The notes under the pieces are model-generated. The model saw only the letters and a program-made list of their open reading frames with translations. It did no database searches and had not been told where the DNA came from. A program made the position numbers and the translations under genes. Shown here one piece after another: positions 13,174-36,755 of a stretch of DNA of 64,000 nucleotides (positions are counted from its first letter, which is position 1; every line of letters begins with the position of its first letter). The stretch lies in the NCBI GenBank assembly GCA_037134915.1, contig JBAXLJ010000002.1:935-64934 (forward strand), given 5' to 3'. Source of the stretch: Candidatus Falkowbacteria bacterium. GTDB lineage: Bacteria > Patescibacteriota > Patescibacteriia > Patescibacteriales > UBA12465.

Positions 13174-15852
13174 ATGAATGAAGAAGTTCCTAAATTTGAA
13201 TATAATGAGAAGTTAAAGAGTTTTGGCTTATGGTTTTTAGGCTCTTTTATTTTTTGTCGCTTAAATCTTAAGCGGTCCCTTATCATCTTGGACAAAACTT
13301 TAATTCGAGTCCGTCGTTTGGTAAATTTTATTGCTTTCTGTTTGGCGGCCTTAGGCTGGATAGCTTTGGTTTGGTATTTTTACGATAAAAGATTTTGGCT
13401 ATTTACCAGTCCATTACAGATTTTGCGTCCGGAAAATTATCAGCACCCCCTGATGCTGGTTTTCTGGCTGTCTTTAATTTTTGATTTATTTCTATATTAT
13501 CGCACGAGTGTTACTTTGTCGGCCAAACAAAAAATTAATTATCAGAAATTTCAAATTGATAATAAGAACGGACAATTTAAGAAAAAAGTTAATTGGAATT
13601 TAGCTAAAACTTTAGACGACGAGGCCAAGAGTGTTATTGATGAGGCTTATTTGTTGGCTGCGAGCCTTAAACAGGCGGAAGTAAATCCTCGTCATCTCTT
13701 TCGAGCCCTGCTTAAAACGAAAAAAATTCAAGCGATGTTTATTCGCCTGGGAGTTGACGCTAATCTACTGATTGAAAAATTAGATAAGCATTTAGCTGAT
13801 GACTCCTTGGCCTCTAAAAACACGGTTCTTAGCAATGAGTTAAAAGAAATAATTATCTTATCGGGATTGGAAGCTTTTTCACGTCAGCAAATAGCGACCA
13901 CCGTTTTAGATTTGGCTGGACCTTGTTACGCCCACGATTCGATTTTGGCGGAAATTTTGTATGATTTAGAGGTTGACGAAAACAAAATAAAAAATGTGAT
14001 TGCTTGGTTTCGAGTTAATGATGAACTGACTCAGAATTACCGCTCCTATCATCAGGCTTCACTTTTAAAGCCCACGACGAATATGAACCGCTCTTATACA
14101 GCGGTCGCTACGCCGACCTTAGATCATTTTTCCAGCGACCTAACTCTAGAAGCGATTTCTGGAAACCTAGATTTATGTATTGAGCGGAATAAAGAGATAA
14201 CTTCTATTTTTGAAGCTTACGCTGGCGGACACGCCGGTGTTTTGCTAGTTGGAACCACTGGAGTTGGCAAAAGAACTATCGTTGAAGGTTTGGCCAGGCT
14301 AATGGTTAAAGAAAGTGTGCCTAAATTCTTGCAGGACAAAAGATTAATCGAGCTTGATTTAGCAGCGCTTATTTCCGGCGCTACGCCAAGTGGCGCTCAA
14401 GAAAGACTGCTTAATTGTCTAACAGAAGTAAATCAAGCCGGTAATATTATTTTATATATTCCTAACGTTGAAAATTTAATCGGTATCAGCTCAGGTGCTG
14501 AAGAGAGTTTTGAACTCTCAGAAGTTTTAGCCGAGGCGATAAACAAGCAAGCTTTATTTTGCTTAGCGACGACCACTCCGGAAAATTATACTAAATTTAT
14601 CGAGGGTAAGTCTCTGGGCGAAGAACTAACTACTGTCGGGGTTTTAGAACCCAATTTTAATCAGATAATTCAGATTTTAGAAAGTAAAGCTAGTAACCTG
14701 GAAGCTCGTTACGGTATTTATTTAACTTATAGTGCTTTAGAGAAAACCGTCAGTTTATCTAATAAGTATTTACACGACGCTAGCAGTCCGCTTAAAGCGA
14801 TTAATCTGTTACAAAAAGCGGCGCTTATTGCTAGCAAAGTCGCGCGTAATAATCCTCAGAAGGTAATTTGCGACGGGGAGGCGGTGGCGGCGGCGATTGA
14901 AGATTTAACCGGTATTCCGGCGAGCAAAGTCTCTGAAGACGAGGGGCAAAAATTACTTAATTTAGAAACTGATATCCATGAACGGATGATTGGCCAAGAA
15001 GAGGCGGTAAAAGCGGTTTCTGCTTCACTACGTCGTGCGCGCGCCGAACTTAAAGATACCGCTCGACCAATCGCTAGTTTTTTATTTTTAGGTCCGACTG
15101 GGGTGGGGAAAACTGAGCTGGCTAAAACCGTGTCGGAAGTTTATTTTGGTAGCGAAGATTACATGATTCGCTTGGATATGAGTGAATATCAAGAAGCTAG
15201 CAGTGTCAGTAAAATGATTGGCGCGCCTAACGGAACCTTAGGTTACTTAACGGAAGCGGTGCGTAAAAAGCCCTTTTCTTTAATCCTTTTAGACGAAATC
15301 GAAAAAGCTAACCCAGATATTTTAAATTTATTTTTACAACTACTCGATGATGGTCGCTTAACCGATGGCCAAGGACGAACTATTAGTTTTGCGCAGTCAA
15401 TTATTATTGCAACTTCCAATATTGGTTCAGTATTTATTCAAGAGGAAATTAAATTGGGCGTCGAGACTAATTTGATCAAACAGGATTTAGTTGATAACCA
15501 GTTGAATAAGTATATGCGCCCCGAACTAATTAATCGTTTTGACAGTATTGTCGTCTTTAGGCCGCTAACCGAAGAAGATATTTTTACCATTGCAACTTTG
15601 ATGCTTAAGAAGATTAAGAAAAATTTAGCGGAGAAGGGGGTTAATTTTAAGGCCGATAAAACCGGGGTTCAGATTTTAGCTAAAGCGGGCTACGACCCTA
15701 AATTTGGTGCCAGGCCGCTGCGGCGTTTACTTCAGGAGCGAGTTGAAGATGAGGTTGCTAATTTATTCTTAGCTGCTAAGCTAAAAAGGCGCGACACGGT
15801 TTTTATCGATAATCGCGGTAAAATTGGTGTTGAAAAAGCCCGTGAATTATAA
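13174..15852 (+). CDS. Membrane-anchored Clp/Hsp100-family AAA+ ATPase with a degenerate first nucleotide-binding domain
   Basis: ~110-aa hydrophobic N terminus, then Clp_N-like repeats. NBD1 Walker A is GTTGVGKRT and the Walker B position reads ILYIPNVENL (DE lost). NBD2 is intact ([24 protein letters not shown]). No long ClpB-type coiled coil. Confidence 0.8.
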   Translation: MNEEVPKFEYNEKLKSFGLWFLGSFIFCRLNLKRSLIILDKTLIRVRRLVNFIAFCLAALGWIALVWYFYDKRFWLFTSPLQILRPENYQHPLMLVFWLSLIFDLFLYYRTSVTLSAKQKINYQKFQIDNKNGQFKKKVNWNLAKTLDDEAKSVIDEAYLLAASLKQAEVNPRHLFRALLKTKKIQAMFIRLGVDANLLIEKLDKHLADDSLASKNTVLSNELKEIIILSGLEAFSRQQIATTVLDLAGPCYAHDSILAEILYDLEVDENKIKNVIAWFRVNDELTQNYRSYHQASLLKPTTNMNRSYTAVATPTLDHFSSDLTLEAISGNLDLCIERNKEITSIFEAYAGGHAGVLLVGTTGVGKRTIVEGLARLMVKESVPKFLQDKRLIELDLAALISGATPSGAQERLLNCLTEVNQAGNIILYIPNVENLIGISSGAEESFELSEVLAEAINKQALFCLATTTPENYTKFIEGKSLGEELTTVGVLEPNFNQIIQILESKASNLEARYGIYLTYSALEKTVSLSNKYLHDASSPLKAINLLQKAALIASKVARNNPQKVICDGEAVAAAIEDLTGIPASKVSEDEGQKLLNLETDIHERMIGQEEAVKAVSASLRRARAELKDTARPIASFLFLGPTGVGKTELAKTVSEVYFGSEDYMIRLDMSEYQEASSVSKMIGAPNGTLGYLTEAVRKKPFSLILLDEIEKANPDILNLFLQLLDDGRLTDGQGRTISFAQSIIIATSNIGSVFIQEEIKLGVETNLIKQDLVDNQLNKYMRPELINRFDSIVVFRPLTEEDIFTIATLMLKKIKKNLAEKGVNFKADKTGVQILAKAGYDPKFGARPLRRLLQERVEDEVANLFLAAKLKRRDTVFIDNRGKIGVEKAREL

Positions 15853-25970: not shown

Positions 25971-26055
25971 GGAGAGCTCGCATAGTGGTCGAGTGCGCAC
26001 GCTTGGAAAGCGTGTATACCGCAAGGTATCAAGGGTTCGAATCCCTTGCTCTCCG
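25971..26055 (+). tRNA. tRNA-Ser (anticodon GGA)
   Basis: Hand-folded cloverleaf: acceptor ggagagc/gctctcc, D stem gcat/gtgc, anticodon stem cacgc/gcgtg, loop ttGGAaa, 16-nt variable arm (atacc/ggtat), T arm aaggg-ttcgaat-ccctt, discriminator G. CCA is not encoded. Confidence 0.9.
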
Positions 26056-26092
26056 CAGATACGAAAAAGCAGTTTTAATTAGCTGCTTTTTT
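26043..26092 (+). repeat. Island repeat copy R0 (tRNA 3' end core ctctccgcagat plus hairpin-terminator)
   Basis: cccttgctctccgcagatacgaaaaagcag-ttttaatta-gctgctttttt. The core and hairpin are nearly duplicated at 27996-28043. Confidence 0.8.
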
Positions 26093-26204
26093 GTCATATA
26101 TAAGCCTAAATATTGAGTTCCAAAGTAGTTCGAACTTTTTCTTAAAATTGTCTATTTTTATCATTATTCCATTATTAATTAGCTTACTTTACACAAAATA
26201 GCTT

Positions 26205-26225
26205 GGTTCGAAATCCCTAACTCCC
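26205..26225 (+). repeat. tRNA T-arm/acceptor-like fragment
   Basis: ggttcgaaatccctaactccc compared with the tRNA's gggttcgaatcccttgctctcc, 150 nt downstream of the intact tRNA. Confidence 0.55.
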
Positions 26226-26235
26226 TAAAATTTAA

Positions 26236-26264
26236 TTGACAATAAATAAAATATGTGATATAGT
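26236..26264 (+). promoter_or_regulatory. Near-consensus promoter (TTGACA-N17-TATAGT with an extended -10 TG)
   Basis: TTGACA at 26236-41, a 17-nt spacer ending in tgtga, TATAGT at 26259-64. Confidence 0.7.
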
Positions 26265-26519
26265 CTATTTGTAAATTTAATTCGCGTTTTTAGCAATCAA
26301 AAGCACATTTGTATATAGCTTACGGAGTACAGTTGGGTTGTATAAACCTATACAAAGAGAATTTTATTTAACACGGTAGACTGATAAGGCCAGAAATTTG
26401 ATGGATTGCTCATCTTTTTTCTATAAGGCGAACGATTTTTTATTCGACTCCAGTTACGGAAGTAACCTAAGAAAGAATAGAAAATCGTTAACTTGCTGAT
26501 CAAACAAAAAAGGCAAGTT

Positions 26520-26774
26520 ATGAAAAACATTGAATGTACATTAATTCAGGTCAAAAAAACTTTTAATGAGAACGCTGATACTTTAGCAATAAATTATTGT
26601 CAGCAAAATGATTTGATTCCAACATTGGTTAAGATAAGCTTGAAAACAATGGAATTTGTATTTGAAGATTATTGGAATGATGATTGGATTATAAGAGTGC
26701 TCACTAATTTTTTTACTGGACTTGGCGGAGTGGATGTGTTGTGGAATAATAAAACATTCACAACTATTTACTAA
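26520..26774 (+). CDS. Hypothetical protein (84 aa), first island cassette
   Basis: ATG at 26520 preceded by aaaaagg. The track's TTG start at 26493 is less likely. No motif recognised. Confidence 0.5.
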   Translation: MKNIECTLIQVKKTFNENADTLAINYCQQNDLIPTLVKISLKTMEFVFEDYWNDDWIIRVLTNFFTGLGGVDVLWNNKTFTTIY

Positions 26775-26781
26775 AGTAATT

Positions 26782-26811
26782 AAGCTTATCTGTAACGGGT
26801 AAGCTTTTTTA
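26782..26811 (+). terminator. Terminator after the 84-aa ORF
   Basis: aagctta / taagctt stem followed by TTTTT. Confidence 0.65.
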
Positions 26812-26849
26812 ATTTTCATTGGCATTTTCATAAATCTCAGTGTGAATAG

Positions 26850-26902
26850 CGTTCCTTACTCCCCGCAGATTGTAAATAGCCCTGGAATAGGGGCTATTTT
26901 TT
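26850..26902 (+). repeat. Island repeat copy R1 (short form)
   Basis: cgttccttactccccgcagattgtaaatagccc-tggaatag-gggctatttttt. Confidence 0.7.
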
Positions 26903-26960
26903 GTAGGGAGAATTGAACTTTGAAACGAGTGGTGCTAATATTAAAATAAATAATAAAAAT

Positions 26961-27434
26961 ATGCAAAAATTATTATCAGATGAAGAATATTTTAGCAATC
27001 TCCCCAAAAAACATATTGGGGCCGGCGTTTTAATATTCAATAAAAGTAACCAGCTTTTAATAGTAAAGCCTAATTATAAAGAAGGATGGTCAATACCAGG
27101 TGGTGGTGTAGATACAGATGAGTCTCCCGAGGCAGCGGCAATCAGAGAGACTAAAGAAGAGATTAGTTTGGATTTGGAAAATATAACCCTGATTTGTATT
27201 GAATATACTTTAAAAAGAGGAATAAAACCGGAGACTCTGCAATTTATTTTTTATGGAGGGGAATTGGATGCAAATGAAATAAATAAGATTTCCTTGGACA
27301 AAAACGAGCACAGCGAATTCAAATTTGTTGATATCTCCGAAGCCACAAATCTGCTTAATGAAAGGCATCAATATATAATACCATTTTGTATTGAGGCAAT
27401 TAAAAATAAGACCACTGCTTATATAGAATTATAG
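26961..27434 (+). CDS. NUDIX hydrolase (island cassette)
   Basis: Nudix box GGGVDTDESPEAAAIRETKEEISL. I prefer the ATG at 26961 (MQKLLSDEEYF) over the track's TTG at 26913. Confidence 0.8.
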   Translation: MQKLLSDEEYFSNLPKKHIGAGVLIFNKSNQLLIVKPNYKEGWSIPGGGVDTDESPEAAAIRETKEEISLDLENITLICIEYTLKRGIKPETLQFIFYGGELDANEINKISLDKNEHSEFKFVDISEATNLLNERHQYIIPFCIEAIKNKTTAYIEL

Positions 27435-27461
27435 ATATTTAGACGATTCAATCAGTATAGT

Positions 27462-27524
27462 CGTTCCAACTACGTCCCACTTTCCCCGCAGTTTGTAAAT
27501 AGCCATATTTATGGCTATTTTTTT
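27462..27524 (+). repeat. Island repeat copy R2
   Basis: cgttccaactacgtcccactttccccgcagtttgtaaatagccat-attt-atggctattttttt. Confidence 0.8.
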
Positions 27525-27571
27525 GGTGGAGAGTTTATTGCTTTGGAACGATATGCTATAATTTATTGCAT

Positions 27572-27976
27572 ATGAAATTAACGGAATCAATAAAAAAGGA
27601 TTTAAATACAGAACAAATAGATTCTCTCATGGATTCAGTGGGCTGGACTGATCATAAAGGAGAAAAAAAATGGCGGGAGATTTTAAGCAAATCGTCTTTT
27701 GTTTATAGTATTTATGATGGAAAAAAAATGGTCGGTTTTGGCAGAATTTTAGAAGATGGGGCAATGTGTATGTTTTATGATATTGTGGTTCACTCGGATT
27801 ATCAGGGCAAAGGAATAGGCAAAATGATAATGAATAATTTGTTAGATTTTGTTAAAGATAAAAACTATATTTCAGTTAGCTTATTCGCTTGGCCAAAAAA
27901 TAAAGACTTTTTATTACCTTTTTACAAAAAATTTGGTTTCGAGTTATTTGAAACAGGGATGAGACTTAAGAAATAA
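27572..27976 (+). CDS. GNAT-family N-acetyltransferase (island cassette)
   Basis: Motif A is VVHSDYQGKGIGKMIMNNLLDFV. The ATG at 27572 lies 9 nt after a TATAAT box (27557-62), so the mRNA is nearly leaderless. Confidence 0.8.
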   Translation: MKLTESIKKDLNTEQIDSLMDSVGWTDHKGEKKWREILSKSSFVYSIYDGKKMVGFGRILEDGAMCMFYDIVVHSDYQGKGIGKMIMNNLLDFVKDKNYISVSLFAWPKNKDFLLPFYKKFGFELFETGMRLKK

Positions 27977-27977
27977 T

Positions 27978-28043
27978 CGTTCCAACTACATCCTATTCTC
28001 TCCGCAGATAGGAAAAAGTAGCTTATATAGGCTACTTTTTTTG
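27978..28043 (+). repeat. Island repeat copy R3 (closest copy of the tRNA 3' end plus hairpin)
   Basis: cgttccaactacatcctattctctccgcagataggaaaaagtagc-ttatatag-gctactttttttg. It starts 1 nt after the GNAT stop codon. Confidence 0.8.
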
Positions 28044-28238
28044 TTTATTTTTGGTAAATATTTTGAGTTCTAAAGCGGTTTGGATATTTTTAGAGAGAGC
28101 GTGACGGTTTTTGATAAAATGACTTATTTATATCTATTTTTAGATAAAATTTGTTAGTTCGAACCTGATTAAAAATAGGTTTCTTTTGAACTTTTATTGT
28201 GATATATTATTAGTATAAATTAAGGTTAAATATTTTGT

Positions 28239-29384
28239 ATGAAAAATATTCCAACAGAGTTTAAGCAACCATTTGTCCCAGAAAGCGAGGGTAATCCTGA
28301 AAAATTGGATAAAAATTTTTCTAATCTTAATGTTTTTAAAGAAGAAGTTGCAAGTGGTGAAGAAATAATCGAAATAGTAAAAATGAAAATTGATGATAAG
28401 AATAAACTTTCTCAGGTAAGAGAAGATTTAGGCTTAGAAATAGATAAAGATATTCAGATTCAGATGTATATTGATGCATTGCCAAAAAATAAAGATTATA
28501 TAGATTTTAGTAAATTACAAAAAATTGGTAGCGGGGGCACTCATGATGTTTTTATTGATCCAAATAATCCAAATTTTGTAATCAAATTAAATAGAAATGC
28601 CCTAGAAAAAGCTAGTAGTTTAAGCCAGTCGGATTGGTCAGACGAAACACAGAAAAAAGTTAATGAATATGTAGAAGGGGAGAATGATAAAAATAAGCAA
28701 CTATATAAATTTTTTGGCGTAGAAAATTGTTTAAGTGAAAAGGTGATGATGGCAAAAATAAATATAGAACATAACAATGAATCACAAAATATTAACGGTG
28801 TGATTTCAATCCAGGAAACAAGTGATGTTTTTAAAAATCCTACAAAAAAAGATTTTAGTATAGGGTACGTTGAAAAAGGTGAACTGTTTAAAGAAAATAA
28901 GGATGTTTATGATGATATGAATAGGGCTCTTTTCGGTAGTGCTGATTTTAGTGAAGAAGATGTTTTGTTATTTAATGAAAAATTGAAGCCAATTTTTGAG
29001 CTTGTAGATACTGACCAAAAATTTGCTGACAGTATGAGAGAATTCTTAGTTAGATTCAAAGATTACTTTGAAGCATCTGGGCACTTCATTGATTTAGTTG
29101 GCGAGGAAAATGTTTTATTTTATCAAAAAGATGGTAATTGGTCTTTTAAACTAGGTAGTGTAATTAAGCAAGAAACAAAACAAGGAATGGAAACCGCCCT
29201 AGATTCTCTAAGGGGGAATCCGGACACTTTAAATCAGGACGAATCTTTACGTAACCAACTAATTAATCAATTAGCTGTATCGAGATTGTTGAATGCGGCT
29301 GGGATAAAAGTTGGCATTGGTAAAGTCGTTGATATTGAGTTATCAGAAAAACAGTTAGAAAATTTAGATAAAGTAAAATTTTAG
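28239..29384 (+). CDS. Hypothetical protein with protein-kinase-like motifs (atypical)
   Basis: IGSGGTHDVF (Gly-rich loop-like), FVIKLNR (VAIK-like Lys), HFIDLVGEENVLF (HxD....N catalytic-loop-like). The motif order fits a kinase fold. No search was done. Confidence 0.35.
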   Translation: MKNIPTEFKQPFVPESEGNPEKLDKNFSNLNVFKEEVASGEEIIEIVKMKIDDKNKLSQVREDLGLEIDKDIQIQMYIDALPKNKDYIDFSKLQKIGSGGTHDVFIDPNNPNFVIKLNRNALEKASSLSQSDWSDETQKKVNEYVEGENDKNKQLYKFFGVENCLSEKVMMAKINIEHNNESQNINGVISIQETSDVFKNPTKKDFSIGYVEKGELFKENKDVYDDMNRALFGSADFSEEDVLLFNEKLKPIFELVDTDQKFADSMREFLVRFKDYFEASGHFIDLVGEENVLFYQKDGNWSFKLGSVIKQETKQGMETALDSLRGNPDTLNQDESLRNQLINQLAVSRLLNAAGIKVGIGKVVDIELSEKQLENLDKVKF

Positions 29385-29512
29385 AAATAATTTAAAATTA
29401 GCGTAAGGCATCTTTGTTTTGGGTTAATTATTACTAGACATAATTATTTTACCTGAACTTAGGTGTCTTTTGTATTAAATTAAGCTTGGGACCAGAATGT
29501 AGGCACTATAGA

Positions 29513-29541
29513 TTGACGTAAGTGTATTAATATAGTATTAT
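29513..29541 (+). promoter_or_regulatory. Island promoter module copy (TTGACG-N17-TATTAT)
   Basis: gattgacgtaagtgtattaatatagtattat, homologous to the modules at 31440 and 33602. Followed by the ttgtt..aactttaaaaattaaa leader and a strong SD (aggagg) for the next ORF. Confidence 0.6.
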
Positions 29542-29605
29542 TCCTTGTTGCGAAAGAACTTTAAAAATTAAATATTAGTATAAATATAATACAGGAGGCG
29601 TCGTC

Positions 29606-30946
29606 ATGAAAAAGGCCAATGAATTAGATGATAATCTTACTAAAATTAATCCTTTGAATTATGAAAAATTGCAGTTAATGAATTTTTCACTTCAGGATTT
29701 TCAGGCAGCAGTAGCTAGCGGTACTTTAAATGATTTACAGGTATTAAATGCTATGGAAATTATTTATAGCGTTAAGGGCTCATCTCAAAAGTATAAAGTC
29801 AGGGTTAATTATAAAAATGATCCTAGAATATTACAGTCTACAACAAAGGGGTCTATTTTTTTGGAATCTGAAAAGAAAAATATTTACATCGCTAATCCCA
29901 ATTGCGCTTTTTTCACTATAGAAGAAAAAAGTAGCACGGGGTGGAGTGTCGTGGTCGAAAGTATTTTGACGATTAATCAGGATTTACATATCAACGTTGC
30001 GAAACTGATTAAAAATGAAGAAACAATCGAAAATATTTTATCAACTAAAGATACTTATCAGAAGGCGGAAAAATTTTTGTTCTGCGTTAGTATTAATGTT
30101 TTGCCTGTAATGAGAAACAAAATTAATTTAGTCGAAACAATGTACAAAGACTTTTTTAATAAATATATTGCATTTCAAAACAAGAATTCAACAGAAATAG
30201 TACTTAATAGTTCTAATCTGATTATTGGTTCTATTCTTGCCAATATTCATTTTGGAGAAAAACGAAGCAATACTTATTTACCTATTTCGTTGATTAGTTG
30301 CTCAAGAAGGCAAAAATCATTTATCTACGTGCTAGATTTAATCAAAGTTAGTGAAAATAAAAGTATATCCGAGTATAAGGTTAGCCAGGATATTTTTAAT
30401 TTCAAAAAAAGTTCAGAGAAAGGCGGCGGGGTTCAATCTTTACTGGGCACTGATATATCAGCTATACCGGTAATAGAAAAAATGGCATATCCTGATGATA
30501 TGCATGAGGGCATGGCCGAACTTCAGAATTATATTTTTGCGAGTGCTATAAATAACAAAATTAATAATTTTCCCAACTTATCGTTAAAATATATCGATGC
30601 TGAAGGCAAGATGGCGGGGTATTTTATTTCTTATCAAGGAGTGCGTCAAGGTGTTAAAATTGTTTATATAGAGAACCTGGCAGTTGACCCTAAAAATAAA
30701 ATTGCTGCTGGCAGAATAATTAACCGCTTCATTGAAAAATATCTGGCAGAATATACAGATAAAGGAAACCCCCTGCCTATATATATTCAGTCTCGTGAAG
30801 AGACTACTTATTTCATGATGCAAAAACAATTTGATAAATTGAGAGATAAGTATGGTGTTAATTTTAGTGTTGAAGAGGTTAATAAATATAGATTTGGTAG
30901 TTCGATTATGTACTCGCAATTAATAACCCCTTATTTGACAGATTGA
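29606..30946 (+). CDS. Hypothetical protein with a C-terminal GNAT-like acetyltransferase domain
   Basis: Strong RBS acaggaggcgtcgtcATG. The C-terminal IVYIENLAVDPKNKIAAGRIINRFIEKY resembles GNAT beta4-alpha3 (motif A). The ~330-aa N-terminal part is unrecognised. Confidence 0.45.
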   Translation: MKKANELDDNLTKINPLNYEKLQLMNFSLQDFQAAVASGTLNDLQVLNAMEIIYSVKGSSQKYKVRVNYKNDPRILQSTTKGSIFLESEKKNIYIANPNCAFFTIEEKSSTGWSVVVESILTINQDLHINVAKLIKNEETIENILSTKDTYQKAEKFLFCVSINVLPVMRNKINLVETMYKDFFNKYIAFQNKNSTEIVLNSSNLIIGSILANIHFGEKRSNTYLPISLISCSRRQKSFIYVLDLIKVSENKSISEYKVSQDIFNFKKSSEKGGGVQSLLGTDISAIPVIEKMAYPDDMHEGMAELQNYIFASAINNKINNFPNLSLKYIDAEGKMAGYFISYQGVRQGVKIVYIENLAVDPKNKIAAGRIINRFIEKYLAEYTDKGNPLPIYIQSREETTYFMMQKQFDKLRDKYGVNFSVEEVNKYRFGSSIMYSQLITPYLTD

Positions 30947-31012
30947 TACGATTTAGATTATAATTGTTTCGCGTTATTTTAAGTGTTTAATTTAATTTTA
31001 AAGGAGGTTAAG

Positions 31013-31237
31013 ATGAAAAAGTTTGAATTTCCAGTGGATGATTCGCAGTTTATAAAAGCTAGCGGATCGATGAAATCAAATGGCGGCGGCGGAGGAGACA
31101 TTTGCGTTTTGGTCGCTAAAACAGAACTTGGCGTGGCCGTGCGTGACTCGAAAGATCCTGATAAGGAAACGTTGTATTTTACAACTCAGGAGTTTGATGT
31201 TTTCAAAACAGCCGTTAAAGCAGGCGAGTTCGACTAA
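31013..31237 (+). CDS. DUF397 domain protein
   Basis: FIKASGS...GGGGDICVLVA...GVAVRDSKDPDKETLYFTTQEFDVFKTAVKAGEFD matches the DUF397 pattern W.KSS.S...CVEVA...VAVRDSKDP....L.F....W..F...VK.GEFD. RBS is aaggagg with ATG at 31013. The track's GTG/TTG-type start at 30983 is rejected. Confidence 0.75.
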   Translation: MKKFEFPVDDSQFIKASGSMKSNGGGGGDICVLVAKTELGVAVRDSKDPDKETLYFTTQEFDVFKTAVKAGEFD

Positions 31238-31261
31238 TGTGACTAAAAAGTCAGCAACTTA

Positions 31262-31286
31262 AAGCAGGAATCTTTCCTGCTTTTTT
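31262..31286 (+). terminator. Terminator after the DUF397 gene
   Basis: aagcagga / tcctgctt stem plus a T-run. Confidence 0.8.
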
Positions 31287-31407
31287 ATTTAGAAGAACAG
31301 TTCCAGTTAACCTAATGTAACAAACCAAAACGAAGATTAATTTATGATTTAGCAAAATCGGCAATCTTAAAAGGTAAATTAAAGATATTTAAATTTTTAT
31401 TGAATAA

Positions 31408-31470
31408 CTGCTCCAACTACGTCCCGCTCTCCCTGTGTATTGACAAGAGCATGCTAATATAGTATACTTT
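31408..31470 (+). repeat. Island repeat copy R4 (core plus promoter module TTGACA-N17-TATACT)
   Basis: ctgctccaactacgtcccgctctccctgtgtattgacaagagcatgctaatatagtatacttt. TTGACA at 31440-45, TATACT at 31463-68. Confidence 0.75.
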
Positions 31471-31503
31471 ATTGTTACTTTAAAACTAAATATTAATTAA
31501 AAA

Positions 31504-31728
31504 ATGGGGGACCCAAAGATGACTTCAAAAAGACCATTTCATGAAACCGTTGTGGATGTTATTAATCGATGTCCTAAAGACAATCTTGCAATTTTGCTTG
31601 AACTTCTAGTAAACACTAAAGTTCCTTCTAATAAGGATGCAATTGTCAATGCGTTAGAAAATAAAAAGGGCGACCAAGATAAAGATAATAATGCCTTGGA
31701 TTACGCAATTAAATGCATTTTAGATTAA
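31504..31728 (+). CDS. Hypothetical small protein (74 aa; alternative start 31519)
   Basis: An ORF between repeat R4 and a clean terminator. No motif recognised. Confidence 0.45.
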   Translation: MGDPKMTSKRPFHETVVDVINRCPKDNLAILLELLVNTKVPSNKDAIVNALENKKGDQDKDNNALDYAIKCILD

Positions 31729-31731
31729 ATT

Positions 31732-31759
31732 AAAACCTTTCTTTCAGAAAGGTTTTTTT
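31732..31759 (+). terminator. Terminator after the 74-aa ORF
   Basis: aaaaccttt / aaaggtttt perfect stem plus a T-run. Confidence 0.8.
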
Positions 31760-31793
31760 ATAGCTTAATAACATTTTAAACTATAACCATTAA

Positions 31794-31858
31794 CTATTCC
31801 AACTACGTCCCATTCTCCACGCAGATTGTCAAAATAGCATTAAATGTGCTATTTTTTG
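31794..31858 (+). repeat. Island repeat copy R5
   Basis: ctattccaactacgtcccattctccacgcagattgtcaaaatagca-ttaaatg-tgctattttttg. Confidence 0.8.
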
Positions 31859-31861
31859 TAT

Positions 31862-32401
31862 ATGAATGTTTTATTAAACAACCAAAAAATCAATTTTAAT
31901 TCCAATGACTTTCCAATGTTAATCTCTGGAACCGAGAAGACTGGCTCGTCGTTTTTCAGTGTTTGTTTGTTAGCTGAATTGTTAAAAAATGGATATAAAG
32001 TGTTATTCCTTTCCGCTTATCCAATGGCAAAAGAGGAATTTAGAAAGCAGATAGGCGGTGAATTTGAAAATGCGGTAATTATTGAATCCGGTGAAGAAAG
32101 TGATTTGATAAAGGCGATTAAAGGTCTTACGGATCTAGAAGAACGTCTAGTTTTAATAAAAAATATCGATGTATATAGCCATAAAATATTTGATGTCTTA
32201 AAAAACTTGCAGTTGGTTATTTTTTCAGGCGATTTAGATAAGTGTAAGTTTGCTAGCAGTTTGATTGATAAAACTTTTCCAACTAAAATATTTTTTTCAT
32301 CATCTGAGAAAGATAGACACGTCATAGCGCCAAGTTTGGCAAAATTTTGTGGAGAAGTAGTTAGCAAAAAATATGGTGGTGTAATTAGTCTGGGTATTTA
32401 G
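31862..32401 (+). CDS. Hypothetical protein, RecA/KaiC-like P-loop fold with a degenerate Walker A
   Basis: LISGTEKTGSSFFSVCLLAELLKNGYKVLFLS resembles the KaiC/RadA-type i.G.pGtGKT.f..q.....g.kvlyis pattern, but the conserved Lys is missing. Weak, pattern-based call. Confidence 0.3.
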   Translation: MNVLLNNQKINFNSNDFPMLISGTEKTGSSFFSVCLLAELLKNGYKVLFLSAYPMAKEEFRKQIGGEFENAVIIESGEESDLIKAIKGLTDLEERLVLIKNIDVYSHKIFDVLKNLQLVIFSGDLDKCKFASSLIDKTFPTKIFFSSSEKDRHVIAPSLAKFCGEVVSKKYGGVISLGI

Positions 32402-32428
32402 GTAAATAATTATTTTTTATAATTAAAG

Positions 32429-32486
32429 CTGCAACTAGGTCGCTACCTTTTTTAAAGGACCTCAATAATTGTAATAGTATAAAATT
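32429..32486 (+). repeat. Degenerate island repeat copy (R5b)
   Basis: ctgcaactaggtcgctacc resembles ctgctccaactacgtcccgctctcc with gaps. It is followed by attgtaatagtataaaatt, a degraded promoter module. Confidence 0.3.
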
Positions 32487-32488
32487 AT

Positions 32489-33538
32489 ATGGAAGGAAGA
32501 ACGCACTATGAAAAAATAATCGGTGGCACATCAGAAGATAAAGAAATAGCTTCTGGGGAGCTTCAAACTGCCTTTGAAGAGCAGGATACAAGGTTGGCCG
32601 AGTATGAAATTAAGAAGAGCCCGGAAGACTTAGAGATTATTAAAAAAACAGAATCTCTTGTTGATAAATTTGTTTTAAAATACGGGGGCGATCCAAAACC
32701 ACTTCCAGCTGATAATATTTATATTCTTAAGCCTGATAGTGTTTTAGAAATTAGCCATGGCAAAATTTCTGGTGGTATTTTTAAACCACTAGTGTTAAAA
32801 ATTGGCGTTGAACAACAAAAATCAAAATTGTTATTTGTAAGTATTCTGGCTCACGAGTTATTTCATTTAAAATCTTATAAATCTGCCCGTTTTGGTCAAT
32901 CTAATGAAGATATTCGTCTTTATCGTAGCGGACTCTCCATGATTGACCTCAAGAACCAAAGTGAAGAAGGGGGTGAAGAGAAGCGTTATTTTGATGATCT
33001 GGAAGAAGCTATTGTCGCAGAATGCACAAAAAAAATTGTAGACGAAATCAGTAAAGATGAAGAGTTTAGGGAAGAAATGAAAGCGGTCGTAAAACTTCGT
33101 GATTGGCATTCTGCTTATTATGGAATATCGAGCGAAGAAGCAATAGGATCTGGAAGCGAAATAAAATATATTGTAAACCCCCAAGATAAGGTTGCGGATG
33201 TTCTTGCATTCTCTGATAACGAAGAAAGCCGGCAAGCTTATGCTGCCGGCATGATAGACTATGCTTATGAAGAAGGGGACGCTGAAATAGTTGAAAGACA
33301 AAGAGAAAGAGAAAAATTATATAAACTTTTAGATAATCTAATAACCGGTTCTGGGGGAAAATTAAAAAATCGCGAGGAAGTTTTTGATGAATTCGCAAGA
33401 GCTAATTTCTCCGGTAATTATTTGCCTCTGGCGCGAATGGTCGAAGATATTCTGGGTAAAGGATCATTTAGAAAATTGGCGGAAGAATTTAGTAATGAAT
33501 CAAGTAAGGAGGACGATGAAAATTTGCCAGATAATTAA
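32489..33538 (+). CDS. Hypothetical protein with an HExxH zinc-metallopeptidase motif (ImmA/IrrE-like context)
   Basis: FVSILAHELFHLKSY is the only HExxH motif. The C-terminal tail is acidic. Confidence 0.4.
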   Translation: MEGRTHYEKIIGGTSEDKEIASGELQTAFEEQDTRLAEYEIKKSPEDLEIIKKTESLVDKFVLKYGGDPKPLPADNIYILKPDSVLEISHGKISGGIFKPLVLKIGVEQQKSKLLFVSILAHELFHLKSYKSARFGQSNEDIRLYRSGLSMIDLKNQSEEGGEEKRYFDDLEEAIVAECTKKIVDEISKDEEFREEMKAVVKLRDWHSAYYGISSEEAIGSGSEIKYIVNPQDKVADVLAFSDNEESRQAYAAGMIDYAYEEGDAEIVERQREREKLYKLLDNLITGSGGKLKNREEVFDEFARANFSGNYLPLARMVEDILGKGSFRKLAEEFSNESSKEDDENLPDN

Positions 33539-33562
33539 TTTTTAATTTCATTTACATTTTTA

Positions 33563-33636
33563 CAAGTTCCAATTTAAACAAAGCCTCTAGTTCTCCACTG
33601 ATTGACAAAAGCATACTAATATAGTATGCTTTTTTG
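33563..33636 (+). repeat. Island repeat copy R6 (diverged core plus promoter module TTGACA-N17-TATGCT with a perfect hairpin)
   Basis: caagttccaatttaaacaaagcctctagttctccactgattgacaaaagcatact-aatat-agtatgcttttttg. TTGACA at 33602-07, TATGCT at 33625-30. Confidence 0.7.
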
Positions 33637-33665
33637 TTATATTTAGAACCTTAAAAATTAAAGTC

Positions 33666-34130
33666 ATGACAAATGTGATGTGCCAAGCAAAAGACAAAAT
33701 GGTAACAAGCTACTTTGTTGCCAAGTTAGTAAAAAGGATTTTCTGGTTTCTGCTACCCGTATGTTTAATTCTAGGGATTACAATTATTACGACCACCTCG
33801 GGACTTAGTGTGGTAAATTTATTTATCACTGGACTAGCGACTATTGGTTTAAGTCAGTTTTTGTCAGAGCTTATTTCGAGGCTGGTTATAATTAATAGAA
33901 TTAGTTCAGCTGACGGTCAGGATGTTGCGTCTATTTATTTCAAGATAAAGAGAGAGTTGGAGGAAATGGAGAAAGAAAAAAATGATCTTGAAACAGAATG
34001 CCCCGAAAAGACTCTTTTTTTCCCAGCTTATATAGATAATCTATCAAGGACTGACCCCAGAAAGAGGCTCGCTAAGATAAAAACAAAGATCCTGCTTGCT
34101 AGAACAGAGCTAAATTTATTTAGCTACTAG
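33666..34130 (+). CDS. Membrane protein with a C-terminal coiled-coil-like segment, hypothetical
   Basis: Two hydrophobic helices (FWFLLPVCLILGITIITT, VVNLFITGLATIGLSQFL) followed by the charged KRELEEMEKEKNDLE segment. Confidence 0.45.
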   Translation: MTNVMCQAKDKMVTSYFVAKLVKRIFWFLLPVCLILGITIITTTSGLSVVNLFITGLATIGLSQFLSELISRLVIINRISSADGQDVASIYFKIKRELEEMEKEKNDLETECPEKTLFFPAYIDNLSRTDPRKRLAKIKTKILLARTELNLFSY

Positions 34131-34169
34131 TGAATCGGTAAAAAGTAGTTTGAAAAACTCTTAACTAAG

Positions 34170-34198
34170 AAGGTGTCCATTTAATGAGCACCTTTTTT
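34170..34198 (+). terminator. Terminator at the right end of the island
   Basis: aaggtg / cacctt stem plus TTTTTT. Confidence 0.65.
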
Positions 34199-34277
34199 AT
34201 TTTGACTTTAATTGCTAATTATGATTAAATTAATGAAATTAAAGGTATCTTCAATAATTTAAATAAAGCCTATATAT

Positions 34278-36755
34278 ATGGAATTTAAACCAGAAGAATT
34301 CGAGAAAAAGTGGCAAGAAAAATGGGAGAGCTTGCACCTTTATCGCGCCGATGATAATTCTACCGCGCCTAGGTGTTTTGTCGTGGATATGTTTCCGTAT
34401 CCGTCTGGCAGCTCCATGCACGTCGGTCATCCCCGGGGTTATGTGGCCACCGATGTTTACAGTCGTTTTAAGAGGATGAGCGGATTTAATGTTCTACATC
34501 CGATGGGTTGGGATGCTTTTGGCTTACCAGCTGAAGAAACGGCTATCTTAAACAAGGAATATCCTACGGTGACCGTTAATCGCAACATCGATAAATTTAA
34601 ATTGCAGCTGACTATGTTGGGCTTGGGCTATGATTGGTCTCGAGAGATAAATACCACTGATCCAAAATACTATATTCAAACACAGAGAATCTTTTTAGAA
34701 TTTTTCAAAAGAGGCTTGGCGCAGAATAAGACGGTGGCGGTTAACTGGTGTCCTGAATTAGGTACGGTTTTGGCTAACGAAGACATCGTTGATGGTAAAA
34801 GTGAACGCGGTGGTTATCCGGTTTATCAACAACCCATGCGCCAATGGATTTTGGCTATTACTCAGTATGCCGATCGCTTAGTCGATGACTTGGAACTGCT
34901 ACCTCATTGGCCGGAAAAAATAAAAACCGCTCAACGTAATTGGATTGGCCGCAGTGAGGGGCATGAATTTGAATTTGTGACTACTGCCGGTATTAATGTT
35001 CCAGTCTTTACTACTCGACTGGAGACTCTTCCTGGCGCGACTTTTTTAGTCTTGGCTCCAGACAGTGAAATTACTAAAAAGATTATTCCCTCAGCCGCTA
35101 ACTTAGCTGAAATTAAAAATTACATTGAAATCAGTGGTCAAAAAACCGACTTAGATAAACAGTTGTCCAATGAAAAAACGGGAGTAATTATTGAAGGTGT
35201 TACCGCCACTAATTCATTTAGTAACACCCAAATACCAATTGTGATTGCTGATTATGTCCTGTCTTCTTATGGAACGGGGGCTATTATGGCAGTTCCGGCT
35301 CACGATGAGCGTGATGCTGAAATGGCTCAAGTTTTAAAGTTGCCAGTAGTGACTGTGGTTGAGGCTGATAAAATGATTAACGCTGGTTCTCTTAGTGGTG
35401 AGACTATTTTAGAAGCTCGTCAAAAAGTTTCAAAGATGATAAATGCCACATCTCAAAAAAGATTTAAAATTCGTGATTGGGTTTTTTCTAGGCAGAGATT
35501 TTGGGGGGAACCATTTCCTATTGTTTGGGTTGAAGGCCAAGATAACTATGAATTAATTGCCAAGAGTCCGGTTGGAAAATGGTTACCGAAAGAACCGGTG
35601 TCTTATTCTAATGAAGCAGTCGAATATTTTGCCGTTCCGGTATTACCAGAATTTTTAAGTGCCATGCGTTTACCTCAAGTGGAGTCATATCAAGCCACGG
35701 GCACTTTGGAAGGACCCCTAGCTGGTATTAGCGAGTGGGTTAATACTTTTATAAATACTGAGACTGGTGAAGTATCAAATGAATCGCGTGGTGAAAATTG
35801 GATCCCGGCGCTTAGAGAAACTAACACGATGCCACAATGGGCCGGGTCTTCCTGGTATTGGTTGCGTTATATGGACCCCACAAATGAGACGGCTCCTTTT
35901 TCAAAAGAGTCATCTAAGTATTGGGGCCCCGTAAATGTTTACGCCGGCGCTGACCACGCAGTCGCTCATCTTATTTACGCTCGTTTTTGGCACAAGATGA
36001 TGCAAGACGCTGGTATGGTTGATTTTCCAGAACCTTTTGAGAGATTAGAGTTTTTAGGTTACATTTTAGCTGCCGATGGCACTAAGATTTCTAAGAGAAA
36101 AGGTAACAGCCGCAGTCCCGAAGATATTGTTAAAGAGGTTGGGGCTGACGCTTTCCGTTTATACGAAACATTTATTGGTCCCTTTGAAAAACCAATTCCT
36201 TGGAGTGATAATGGACTTATCGGTTGCAGGCGTTTTCTGGAGAAGATTTGGCGTTTGGCGGAAACAGTTATCGAAGCTAAGGCTGAAGTCTCTGACCCCG
36301 CGGCGGCCTCGTCGATTAATAAGACGATCCAAAAAGTGGGACAGGACATTGAGACTTTTAAATTCAACACCGCCGTTTCTAGCATGATGATTTGCTTAAA
36401 TGAAATTCAGAAGAGTGTTGTTAGTATCGCTGATTTTAAATCCTATCTGGCTTTACTGGCACCTTTTGCTCCGCATATGGCTGAAGAAATTTGGTCGATG
36501 TCAAAAGCCGAAGGTTCTATTCATCTTTCTTCTTGGCCTAAAGTTGACGCTAAAATGATTAATGATAACGAGGTGACTGTAGCCATTCAAATTAATGGTA
36601 AACATCGCTCAAATATTATGGCCTCTAGAGATGCCGACGAAGCAACCATTAGGGGACTAGTTCTAAATGATGACGCGGTTAAGAAGTATTTAGCCGGAAG
36701 CGAACTCAAAAAGTTTATTTATGTTCCCGGAAAAATTGTTAGTCTCATAATTTAA
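34278..36755 (+). CDS. leuS: Leucine--tRNA ligase
   Basis: PYPSGSSMHVGHPRGY (HIGH motif), KISKRKGN (KMSKS motif), and a typical LeuRS N terminus EKKWQEKWE. 825 aa. Confidence 0.95.
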   Translation: MEFKPEEFEKKWQEKWESLHLYRADDNSTAPRCFVVDMFPYPSGSSMHVGHPRGYVATDVYSRFKRMSGFNVLHPMGWDAFGLPAEETAILNKEYPTVTVNRNIDKFKLQLTMLGLGYDWSREINTTDPKYYIQTQRIFLEFFKRGLAQNKTVAVNWCPELGTVLANEDIVDGKSERGGYPVYQQPMRQWILAITQYADRLVDDLELLPHWPEKIKTAQRNWIGRSEGHEFEFVTTAGINVPVFTTRLETLPGATFLVLAPDSEITKKIIPSAANLAEIKNYIEISGQKTDLDKQLSNEKTGVIIEGVTATNSFSNTQIPIVIADYVLSSYGTGAIMAVPAHDERDAEMAQVLKLPVVTVVEADKMINAGSLSGETILEARQKVSKMINATSQKRFKIRDWVFSRQRFWGEPFPIVWVEGQDNYELIAKSPVGKWLPKEPVSYSNEAVEYFAVPVLPEFLSAMRLPQVESYQATGTLEGPLAGISEWVNTFINTETGEVSNESRGENWIPALRETNTMPQWAGSSWYWLRYMDPTNETAPFSKESSKYWGPVNVYAGADHAVAHLIYARFWHKMMQDAGMVDFPEPFERLEFLGYILAADGTKISKRKGNSRSPEDIVKEVGADAFRLYETFIGPFEKPIPWSDNGLIGCRRFLEKIWRLAETVIEAKAEVSDPAAASSINKTIQKVGQDIETFKFNTAVSSMMICLNEIQKSVVSIADFKSYLALLAPFAPHMAEEIWSMSKAEGSIHLSSWPKVDAKMINDNEVTVAIQINGKHRSNIMASRDADEATIRGLVLNDDAVKKYLAGSELKKFIYVPGKIVSLII

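Follow-up and report, generated by a model that had tools for sequence, protein, structure and literature searches.

A tRNA-Ser-anchored array of small gene cassettes in a Candidatus Falkowbacteria contig and a large serine recombinase associated with its boundary site

How does a row of small, unrelated genes, separated by short related repeats, come to lie between a tRNA gene and leuS in DNA that encodes no recombinase? The question is raised by a 64,000-nucleotide stretch of a Candidatus Falkowbacteria contig (JBAXLJ010000002.1, assembly GCA_037134915.1, positions 935 to 64,934 of the forward strand; hereafter the window, or the 64-kb window). Its sole tRNA gene, tRNA-Ser(GGA) at 25971-26056 on the + strand (ARAGORN; Rfam tRNA, 55.4 bits), is followed by ten open reading frames (ORFs) on the same strand, which fill the interval up to leuS (34278-36755); the encoded LeuS is 100% identical to MEI6835537.1. 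The best reading is that of a cassette array anchored at tRNA-Ser, similar to staphylococcal cassette chromosome (SCC) elements or to integrons and built by a large serine recombinase (LSR), and we consider it likely that site-specific recombination of the LSR-associated attachment (att) system assembled it. An earlier note, made from the sequence of the window alone, had described small cassettes, delimited by a recombination-type site, in an array anchored at tRNA-Ser, and the profile searches and comparisons reported here bear this description out.

The boundary site and its association with tRNA-Ser and a serine recombinase

Within the window, the 14-mer TCCAACTACGTCCC occurs exactly at 27465, 31412 and 31798 and with 2 mismatches at 27981. 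No shuffled sequence reached this count. The sequence CTCTCCGCAGAT, which consists of the last bases of tRNA-Ser(GGA) and five more, has an exact second copy at 27998 and copies with 1-2 mismatches at 26859 and 31815. A profile hidden Markov model (HMM) trained on 196 sites, all from other contigs and none from the window, detected four full sites, at 27456, 27972, 31403 and 31792 (E = 4e-12 to 6e-7), and two right-half sites, at 26859 (R1) and at the tRNA end (26049). The remaining 56 kb of the window gave no significant match, and the site is confined to 26.0-34.2 kb.

Further copies were collected with an exact 21-nt pattern, which skews the sample towards well-kept sites, and all counts are those of biased samples. 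Scanning one genome per species identified real copies in four further Patescibacteria-type contigs (L005, L006, L007 and L009), and at least 120 stretches with the site were found among metagenome contigs; a viral collection gave no match to the site. The matches in L008, L010 and L011 fell in coding DNA of Streptomyces and Verrucomicrobia, were attributed to chance and were left out. The working set of 128 motif-bearing sequences is made up of the window, 124 real loci and these 3 chance matches, which places the site in at least 124 other loci; many of the contigs are short and end at repeats. The comparisons below refer to the loci listed. Within each locus the copies, up to 10 in number, are co-oriented, except for chance-level 3-mismatch matches, and 222 unique copies gave the consensus AAAACCGTTCCAACTACGTCCCACCCTCTCCGCA, beyond which conservation collapses. 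A tRNA gene was present upstream on the same strand in 28 loci and was tRNA-Ser in 27 of them, an exclusive link but for one locus, with all four anticodons represented (TGA 10, GCT 7, CGA 5, GGA 5).

Which enzyme might recognize such a site is suggested by a second type of locus. In L005/L057, the second copy of the site abuts a convergent gene of 524 aa whose Resolvase, Recombinase and Zn_ribbon_recom domains identify it as an LSR, and which matches the phrog_95 integrase. Homologues were found in 10-11 loci, each on the strand opposite to the motif. In L012, L035/L068 and L099 the LSR gene abuts the 3′ end of tRNA-Ser, with the motif 6.4-7.8 kb downstream, and the order is tRNA-Ser 3′ end, LSR, rolling-circle Rep protein (REP_ORF2-G2P), 316-aa protein, cargo and motif; the cargo consists of few genes, for example a superinfection-exclusion lipoprotein. 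Spacings of 6.2-7.7 kb between LSR and motif were also observed in L080, L114, L119 and L127. With the tRNA-Ser 3′ end at the proximal side and the motif at the distal side, the motif therefore marks the distal att site of an autonomous integrative element of 6-8 kb. When locus ORFs of at least 180 aa were clustered, the LSR, Rep and 316-aa proteins were the only recurrent "mobility" families, and no recurrent tyrosine recombinase was found among the loci listed. The LSR family has 1921 matches at E ≤1e-30, mostly named as Patescibacteria; the named Falkowbacteria LSR closest in accession number to the window's LeuS, MEI6379096.1, comes from another genome. LSR elements and small cassettes are combined in L057, L012, L080, L067 and L127, and units that lack a recombinase and are bounded by the same att repeats stand in tandem with LSR-bearing ones; the window and most other loci have cassettes only.

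Several observations concern the LSR elements themselves. A 50%-identical LSR with the same Rep neighbor lies at the 3′ end of a tRNA-Gln(CTG) gene in L132 (8384-11550), without a Ser-type motif, and the family seems to comprise clades that target different tRNA genes. The 3′ end of the LSR frame crosses the att core into the tRNA or the left arm (oriented positions: L012, 3808-3931; L035, 1993-2047; L057, 2524-2590), and the C-terminal tail of the protein therefore varies with the integrated context. At L114 ~3190-3280, L127 ~1590-1680 and L119 ~2440-2500, the proximal LSR junction is a conserved sequence ending ..ACGGTTCCAGCYCGAGGTAGCCCGCA, in which no tRNA-Ser was recognizable and no tRNA or Rfam match was found. 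Finally, the element of L080, which carries LSR and Rep genes, contains a LOOT RNA (4061-4181, +; Rfam RF03000, 86 bits against a gathering score of 46) between a conserved 310-aa gene and the cargo; it was absent from five other LSR elements scanned.

The site itself can be compared with the two kinds of att site used by serine integrases. Its conserved part is approximately 34 nt of primary sequence, and AAAACCGTTCCAACTACGTCCCACCCTCTCCGCAGATTGTAAATAGCCC represents an attP-type site. The left arm is of attP type, AAAACC-GTTCCAA-CTACG, and next to it comes a 15-nt copy of the tRNA-Ser 3′ end, TCCC-ACC-CTCTCCGC; the attB-type counterpart in tRNA-Ser genes reads GTTCGAA-TCCC-nnn-CTCTCCGC. From outer heptamer to core the tRNA spans 22 nt (GTTCGAA + TCCCnnnCTCTCCGC) and the repeat 27 nt (GTTCCAA + CTACG + TCCCaccCTCTCCGC), which puts the outer motif GTTCSAA of the repeat 5 bp further out than that of the tRNA; the 5-nt linker (CTACG, GTGCG, CATCG) is the most variable part. 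In serine integrases, the zinc-ribbon motif lies 5 bp closer to the center in attB than in attP and the inner motif is shared (PMC3783163). The same 5-bp offset is seen here in the left half-sites only, the right halves having no clear dyad. Given that its heptamer lies 5 bp further out, the repeat resembles the left half of attP, and the tRNA resembles the corresponding left half of attB. The earlier note had likened the core to the T-arm and acceptor half of the tRNA. This holds for the 3′ core, which is tRNA-Ser-like; the left part is no decayed piece of tRNA, and internal cores share a global consensus irrespective of the resident T-stem.

The position of the exchange can be narrowed by comparing junctions. 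Internal cores follow the global consensus TCCCACCCTCTCCGC even where the T-stem strand of the resident tRNA differs (TCCCCGCC.., TCCCTTGC..), so the tRNA appears to keep its own T-stem, and exchange would occur to its right. Divergence sets in right after CCGC, occupied tRNAs reading ..CCGC|AGATTG.. (no CCA encoded) and other junctions ..CCGC|CAAGAC.., and exchange would therefore be confined to CTCTCCGC. Judged from these alignments, the crossover most likely lies within the invariant CCGC. A general crossover to the left of the T-stem strand, which the L082/L112 pair described below would suggest, was dropped on the grounds that internal cores ignore the resident T-stem in ~40 sites.

Two further motifs were noticed near the sites. 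Some tRNA-Ser genes and some distal sites are followed by a conserved flank, CAAGAMWATTTAGTATCGGAWAGACC, which retains the encoded CCA (L006 3128-3155, L007 1550-1575, L026 ~3425 and L126 5113-5140, as well as L013, L077 and L131). This flank contains TTTAGTATC, quoted as the zinc-ribbon motif for the Listeria LI integrase (PMC3783163); possible interpretations of the flank are a native flank, a further cassette leader, a right half-site or mere coincidence. The sequence CAAGACAATTTAGTATCGGA is doubtful as a native flank: in L007 it is followed by a further degenerate site, so that it may itself be a cassette leader. The second motif, CTTTGGAAC(G), is an inverted copy of the left-arm sequence CGTTCCAAAG and lies in the type-1 promoter spacer (window 27540-27550 and 26925-26935; for the modules see below). 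It occurs at +70 to +80 in ~30 of 201 sites of other loci, and 11 further sites have the same 9-mer at the same distance in direct orientation, for example at window 26117 and 28066. In single-sequence DNA folds the inverted copy pairs with the left arm. It may be an operator or an accessory recombinase site.

The array between tRNA-Ser(GGA) and leuS

The features of the array are listed below in window coordinates. R0 to R6 denote the successive junctions, with the method or comparison that supports each entry given in brackets.

25971..26056, +: tRNA-Ser(GGA), the docking gene, intact, with attB-type left half GGTTCGAATCCCTTGCTCTCCGC; CCA is not encoded past the junction (ARAGORN, Rfam; junction compared with 30 other tRNA-Ser genes)
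26041..26092, +: R0, the proximal junction of the array, comprising tRNA 3′ end/core ATCCCTTGCTCTCCGC, AGAT and a terminator-like hairpin AAAAAGCAG..CTGCTTTTTT (repeat family D3, profile)
26110..26265, +: "R0-type" leader module, with P-arm-like motif GAGTTCCAAAGTAGTTCGAAC (again at 28060), tRNA-3′-like TTGGTTCGAAATCCCTAACTCCC (26203-26225) and TTGACA-17-TATAGT (26236-26264) (repeat family D10)
26493..26774, +: cassette 1 ORF, 93 aa from TTG (ATG at 26521), no family match
26782-26806: terminator-like hairpin after the cassette 1 ORF
26850..26963, +: R1, truncated left arm (CGTTCC/TTACTCCCCGC) followed by a type-1 module with hairpin AAATAGCCC..GGGCTATTT, TTGAAC-17-TAATAT and leader, 75-92% identical to modules in ~60 other loci (profile, repeat search)
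26913..27434, +: cassette 2 ORF, Nudix hydrolase, likely ATG 26961 (Pfam NUDIX, E = 1.6e-20)
27456..27573, +: R2, full site CGTTCCAACTACGTCCCACTTTCCCCGC followed by a type-1 module with hairpin at 27497-27520 and TTTATT-17-TATAAT with TG (profile, E = 3.9e-12)
27566..27976, +: cassette 3 ORF, GNAT acetyltransferase, likely ATG 27572 (Pfam)
27972..28042, +: R3, full site CGTTCCAACTACATCCTATTCTCTCCGC, hairpin at 28011-28042 (profile, E = 2.7e-11)
28060-28090, +: R0-type leader following R3
28239..29384, +: cassette 4 ORF, 381 aa, weak YrbL/kinase-like match
29480..29550, +: decayed site GGGACCAGAATGTAG with ruined core, then type-2 module ATTGACG..TATAGTAT; the L111 homologue of this site retains CCCCCGCAGATTGACAAAAG (repeat family D4, homology)
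29606..31288, +: two-gene unit of a 446-aa ORF (29606-30946) and a DUF397 ORF (30983-31237), the latter with its own TTGACA-18-TATAAT (30935-30964) and terminator (31261-31283)
31403..31477, +: R4, left arm intact, core decayed TCCAACTACGTCCCGCTCTCCCTGTGT, fused to a type-2 promoter/hairpin module (TTGACA-17-TATACT) (profile, E = 6e-7)
31504..31760, +: 74-aa cassette ORF and terminator-like hairpin
31792..31858, +: R5, full site ATTCCAACTACGTCCCATTCTCCACGC, then AGATTGTCAAAATAGCA..TGCTATTTTTT (profile, E = 1.1e-9)
31844..32401, +: 185-aa cassette ORF, no family match
32489..33538, +: 349-aa cassette ORF, faint DUF5700 match; the putative boundary before it (32429) is unsupported
33563..33639, +: R6, decayed left arm GTTCCAATTTAAAC..TTCTCCACTG and a well-kept type-2 module ATTGACAAAAGCATACTAATATAGTATGCTTTTTTGTTA, which is found directly after tRNA-Ser in L007, L098 and L107 (module homology)
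33666..34199, +: last cassette ORF, 154 aa, predicted membrane protein, and terminal hairpin

As the earlier note had stated, the ten co-oriented ORFs are AT-rich relative to the flanks (GC 0.28-0.35 over 26-34 kb and ~0.40 on both sides). Thirteen terminator-like hairpins were counted in the array region against an expectation of 4.0 ± 2.6, and the strongest ones on the + strand are at the cassette boundaries. The profile misses R6 and the copy near 29490 because of their decay, and the modules that adjoin them are homologous to modules of other arrays. This supports the previous description of R6 as a diverged copy and, for the two degraded copies that had been proposed, upholds the one near 29490; the other, near 32429, has 3 mismatches, which is chance level, and is unsupported. 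Pfam scans of all 47 non-overlapping window ORFs of at least 120 aa and of three smaller cassette ORFs revealed no recombinase, and tblastn with the site-associated LSR detected nothing in the 64-kb window, so the note was correct that none is encoded nearby. Rfam scans of the array and related loci assigned neither the repeat nor the hairpins nor the GC-rich element described below to any family. Elsewhere in the window, a 510-aa ORF with an RVT_1 match (3765-5297, +; E = 1.3e-10) directly follows a gene for a 1128-aa Ig-like/PKD-repeat protein (49-3435, +) and could belong to a diversity-generating or other retroelement. Two close divergent genes (9535-12168, -, and 13174-15852, +) encode ClpB-type AAA+ proteins, the second without Pfam matches to Clp_N and the first AAA domain.

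Cassettes, expression modules and exchange between arrays

Across the loci, the sites delimit discrete units of fairly uniform size and diverse content. Site-to-site units (n = 133) have a median length of 849 bp (10-90%, 439-1614 bp). Exactly one ORF of at least 50 aa is present in 92 of the 133, and 159 of 181 ORFs are co-oriented. The 181 cassette ORFs fall into 128 clusters, 97 of them singletons, and the families that recur include Nudix, Bro-N, GNAT and RelE/ParE-type pairs.

A hairpin followed by a T-run begins 30-35 nt past the motif start in 148 of 218 sites, compared with 41 in shuffles. These boundary hairpins have 109 distinct stem sequences, with an A-run before and a T-run after, and are by sequence terminator-like. 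Because homology breakpoints fall in the tRNA-like core and not in the hairpin, the hairpin belongs to the following cassette. A structure-conserved hairpin had been proposed as part of the repeat: the hairpin is real, and what is conserved is the primary sequence described above, the hairpin itself being the terminator-like stem and T-run of the next cassette.

Predicted sigma-70-like modules lie between site and start codon, with sequence matches of the forms TTTATC-17-TGnTATAAT, TTGAAC-17-TAATAT and TTGACA-17-TATAGT. In the type-1 module the hairpin is followed by ..GGGAGTTTATCGCTTTGGAACGGCATGATATAAT.. or ..GGGAGAATTGAACTTTGGAACGAGTGGTGCTAATATT.. (-35 box, 17 nt, -10 box). This terminator-plus-promoter module of 105 bp is found in ~60 loci with 75-92% identity, ahead of unrelated genes, and differs from the LSR element's own end. 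The type-2 module merges promoter and hairpin (ATTGACAAAAGCATACTAATATAGTATGCTTTTTT); the window has it three times (29512, 31439 and 33601), and in L007, L098 and L107 it immediately follows the tRNA. It thus appears from the predicted elements that each cassette would bring a terminator for the upstream tRNA or gene, a promoter-like module and a gene.

A GC-rich element of ~150-170 nt was also observed in the AT-rich arrays. It starts with GA(C/A)AGRRGGGATGAGAAC.. and ends in a tRNA-Ser-like 3′ end, ..CCTCCCTCTCCGCA. Its oriented positions are L091 1-150, L082 4095-4265 (= L112 1975-2145), L012 ~11830 and L036 ~5500, and it is also present in L037, L051, L052 and L079 (~3560). ARAGORN found no tRNA in it and Rfam no match at E ≤0.1. 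Possibly it represents a structured RNA, or else a docking site that is carried along.

Cassettes are shuffled between arrays. The GNAT cassette of the window (27483-28005) is 89.5% identical, core to core, to L104 555-1075, and diverged relatives of it have other neighbors in L079 and L108. L057 and L048 share a Bro-N cassette with 92.9% identity between its two sites (1028 nt), and the flanks are unrelated; it is followed by the LSR in one array and by a type-1 cassette in the other. Among homologous cassette pairs with 41-95% protein identity, neighbors differ in every pair that could be compared on that side, and they are mostly kept only in pairs of at least 99% identity, which represent the same strain resampled. 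The boundary-associated variation among relatives that the earlier note had named as a test is exact to the site. L093 and L126 are 99.2% identical over 2.9 kb up to ..CTCTCCGC and then unrelated; a single cassette (99.8% identity) lies directly after the tRNA in L082 and after a left arm in L112; and L026 and L045 differ in the same manner.

At the window's own locus, comparison with close relatives showed complete turnover. In four relatives (LeuS 76-84% identity), the 10 kb upstream of leuS contained no homologue of any of the ten cassette ORFs, and in the closest relatives neither a tRNA gene nor the motif lies within 10 kb of leuS, so the interval could not be aligned cassette by cassette. 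In L001 (LeuS 84% identical), units upstream of leuS are bounded by other tRNA-3′-like fragments, TTGGTTCGAATCCGACCCTGGGAGCCA (3860-4060 and 4880-5030), with a hairpin and a GTTYCAAAGYRGTTCKAAC motif after the fragment, resembling the R0-type module of the window (26057-26230). These units may represent a sister att system in the same genomic neighborhood.

The sole hint of a circular form is L091 (Ga0172373_10089084), a contig of 2385 bp whose first and last 82 nt are identical, as would be expected for a 2303-bp circle or a tandem copy. Besides two ORFs, of 431 and 203 aa, this contig holds a single left-arm site, a hairpin and the GC-rich element.

Assembly of the array and its relation to known systems

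In the model that we favor, the interval would consist of about nine small cassettes serially recombined onto the 3′ end of tRNA-Ser(GGA). The LSR, as the presumed catalyst, would join a circular element or cassette, through its attP-type site, to the 3′ end of tRNA-Ser, and the exchange would take place inside CTCTCCGC, so that the tRNA keeps its own T-stem and acceptor stem. After the tRNA would come the incoming hairpin, usually a promoter-like module, the gene, and then the attP-type left arm and core. The tRNA-proximal junction would retain the attB-type left half, and the next cassette would enter there and push older ones towards leuS. As the junction keeps this half-site, further entry would be possible, and the order would run from newest (proximal) to oldest (distal). 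The window fits this order roughly, R2, R3 and R5 being well kept and R6 and the distal boundary decayed. Each gene of the array would be terminated by the hairpin of its neighbor. As the window has no LSR, its array would be either served in trans from another tRNA-Ser locus or now inactive. That single cassettes are independently mobile in trans, as circles, is an idea we hold tentatively, at a little short of even likelihood. The same guarded standing, somewhat below probable, applies to a broader proposal, in which Patescibacteria possess gene capture analogous to integrons: the 3′ ends of four tRNA-Ser genes would dock cassettes, and an LSR acting in trans would insert and excise circular cassettes of 0.4-1.6 kb that are exchanged between cells. 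Each cassette would then hold one gene, preceded by a terminator and a promoter and followed by an attP-type arm, and the LSR would be carried by a small rolling-circle element.

Several points weigh against assembly by the LSR. There is no LSR or other recombinase within the 64-kb window, and decay is seen in several of its sites, namely R1, R4 and R6 and those near 29490 and 32429. No clear circular molecule of a single cassette was found, one 2385-bp contig with an 82-nt terminal overlap being the nearest case. Canonical LSRs recombine attP with attB only, and repeated entry would require interchangeable right halves or a relaxed directionality like that of Ccr. In the L082/L112 pair, the core variant travels with the downstream DNA, which may fit a crossover further to the left or homologous recombination between repeats.

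Some of these points would also be accounted for if the array were a fossil, left by successive 6-8 kb LSR elements that were reduced by deletion, with immobile one-gene remnants shuffled by homologous recombination between the ~140-bp modules. LSR pseudogenes and fragments do exist (the L067 gene is frameshifted, and annotations in Falkowbacteria include short LSR fragments), several of the window's sites have decayed, the L082/L112 breakpoints are compatible with homologous exchange, and the window has no recombinase. However, no remnants of LSR, Rep or 316-aa genes were seen beside cassette cores, which are accompanied instead by their own terminator/promoter modules in ~60 loci; unit size is tight around one gene, unlike what random decay of 7-kb elements would leave; and cassette families recur intact, from site to site, across arrays. 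We therefore regard a fossil origin as unlikely. A generic intergenic repeat of the repetitive extragenic palindromic (REP) or terminator type, dense here by accident, would explain why most copies include a terminator-like hairpin and follow stop codons. It is very improbable, since the 64 kb contain no copy elsewhere, the loci with an upstream tRNA almost all have tRNA-Ser, the site marks the ends of LSR elements and the hairpin sequence is unconserved. The earlier note had itself asked whether the repeat might be scattered genome-wide; in nine contigs of 84-831 kb, the exact matches all lay inside one region of ≤20 kb each, and a dispersed REP or terminator family is thereby ruled out.

Two other explanations invoke tyrosine recombinases. 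In a classical tRNA island made by a tyrosine integrase, the repeats would be displaced tRNA 3′ fragments, in keeping with the anchoring at a tRNA 3′ end, with a core equal to the tRNA-Ser 3′ end, and with a few internal sites that resemble displaced T-loop fragments (26203; 29480 and its L111 homologue; L082 4250). Yet internal cores mismatch the resident tRNA, a non-tRNA left arm is common to all loci, and neither the window nor the recurrent protein families of the loci include a tyrosine integrase, so that we give this origin little credence. An integron, or a cluster of attC sites lacking an integron-integrase (CALIN), would have repeats that are attC sites, folded as single strands and recombined by an IntI-type tyrosine recombinase encoded elsewhere. 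One ORF per unit, diverse content and Nudix, GNAT and toxin-antitoxin cargo are typical of integron cassettes, and in single-sequence DNA folds the type-1 left arm CGTTCCAA pairs, around the central hairpin, with an inverted TTGGAACG ~75 nt downstream, giving an imperfect palindrome like that of attC. This long fold was rejected: the alignment fold retains the inner hairpin only, and TTGGAACG is present in only ~20% of sites. Moreover, sequence conservation extends over 34 nt with breakpoints in the tRNA-like core, the cassettes have their own promoter-like modules, and the dock is a tRNA gene and not an attI beside intI. No IntI or other tyrosine recombinase is present in the window and none recurs in 125 loci, where the only recurrent recombinase is the LSR. 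True integron membership is thus highly improbable, and the attC likeness pointed out in the earlier note fails in this sense, the linked recombinase in other genomes being an LSR and not IntI. The other option considered there, serial tRNA-targeted integrations, is favored by the comparative data (the tRNA-Ser link, the LSR element ends and the breakpoints).

If assembly by the LSR is correct, the array would offer the Candidate Phyla Radiation (CPR)/Patescibacteria, which have very small genomes and few recognized routes of gene exchange, a compact means of sampling accessory genes, among them Nudix, GNAT, toxin-antitoxin and Bro-N genes and many of unknown function. It would explain hypervariable regions beside tRNA-Ser genes. 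The integron logic of a fixed dock, one-gene cassettes and a recombinase in trans would have evolved a second time, with a serine recombinase, and the making of cassettes could be studied in a second system. The ~140-bp module shared by unrelated genes would then point to a dedicated cassette-making process; such a process is suspected for the attC sites of chromosomal integrons. An LSR with natural attP and attB sites and a conserved tRNA-Ser target in every bacterium would also be a candidate tool for genome engineering, possibly the first genetic handle for CPR bacteria.

Tandem composite islands are formed by SCC elements and include ccr-less pseudo-SCC elements mobilized in trans, and Ccr enzymes both insert and excise. 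SCCmec and the enterococcal cassette chromosomes (ECC), which use Ccr LSRs, share with the present system an LSR, insertion at the 3′ end of a conserved gene that is left functional, direct repeats of ~50 bp and variable cargo. SCC/ECC elements are flanked by direct-repeat att sites of ~50 bp (PMC6222049). They differ in that their target is rlmH (core TATCATAA), whereas here it is tRNA-Ser (core CTCTCCGC); in their ccrAB pair, where we find a single LSR gene beside a rolling-circle Rep gene; and in their size of 20-60 kb, compared with units of 0.4-3.4 kb, usually of one gene, with a conserved terminator and promoter module and a host among Patescibacteria.

Integrons contain co-oriented, diverse, mostly single-gene cassettes, newcomers being inserted at one fixed docking site, and integrase-less CALINs exist. 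In sedentary chromosomal integrons, such as those with Vibrio cholerae repeats (VCRs) in Vibrio, the repeats are similar within a lineage, the genes are unrelated, and GNAT, Nudix and toxin-antitoxin cargo is found. The short, co-oriented, diverse one-ORF cassettes described above resemble these in unit length (849 bp), single ORFs (92/133), orientation (159/181) and singleton clusters (97/128). Integrons, however, use the tyrosine recombinase IntI, folded attC sites and promoterless cassettes expressed from Pc, in contrast to the serine recombinase, sequence-defined site, tRNA dock and cassette-borne promoter-like modules seen here.

Stacking at a tRNA gene, with partial tRNAs and degenerate elements scattered in the island, is shared with the tycheposons of Prochlorococcus. 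A minority of tycheposons have a large serine recombinase, and tRNA-Ser(TGA) is among the tRNA genes and snippets labelled in the figure legends (bioRxiv 10.1101/2020.12.28.424599). Tycheposons are multi-gene elements with mostly tyrosine recombinases, and their repeats are plain partial tRNAs, whereas the arrays described here have a specific non-tRNA left arm, single genes without a mobility gene and conserved expression modules. Non-autonomous, site-bounded units that depend on a recombinase encoded elsewhere and accumulate side by side are also known as cis-mobilizable elements (CIMEs), which accompany integrative and conjugative elements (ICEs), and as the pdif modules of Acinetobacter. 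CIMEs are deletion derivatives of ICEs and use tyrosine integrases, while pdif modules use the host XerCD, have inverted site pairs and reside on plasmids; neither forms tRNA-anchored arrays of promoter-bearing one-gene cassettes. A literature search on serine recombinases, tRNA-Ser and integron-like cassettes in Patescibacteria/CPR found no description of such arrays, in a limited library that leaves absence unproven. SCC/ECC would thus be the closest mechanistic match and the integron the closest architectural one, and what would be new are recombinase-built cassette arrays of Patescibacteria in which an LSR and a tRNA-Ser dock are combined with promoter-bearing one-gene cassettes.

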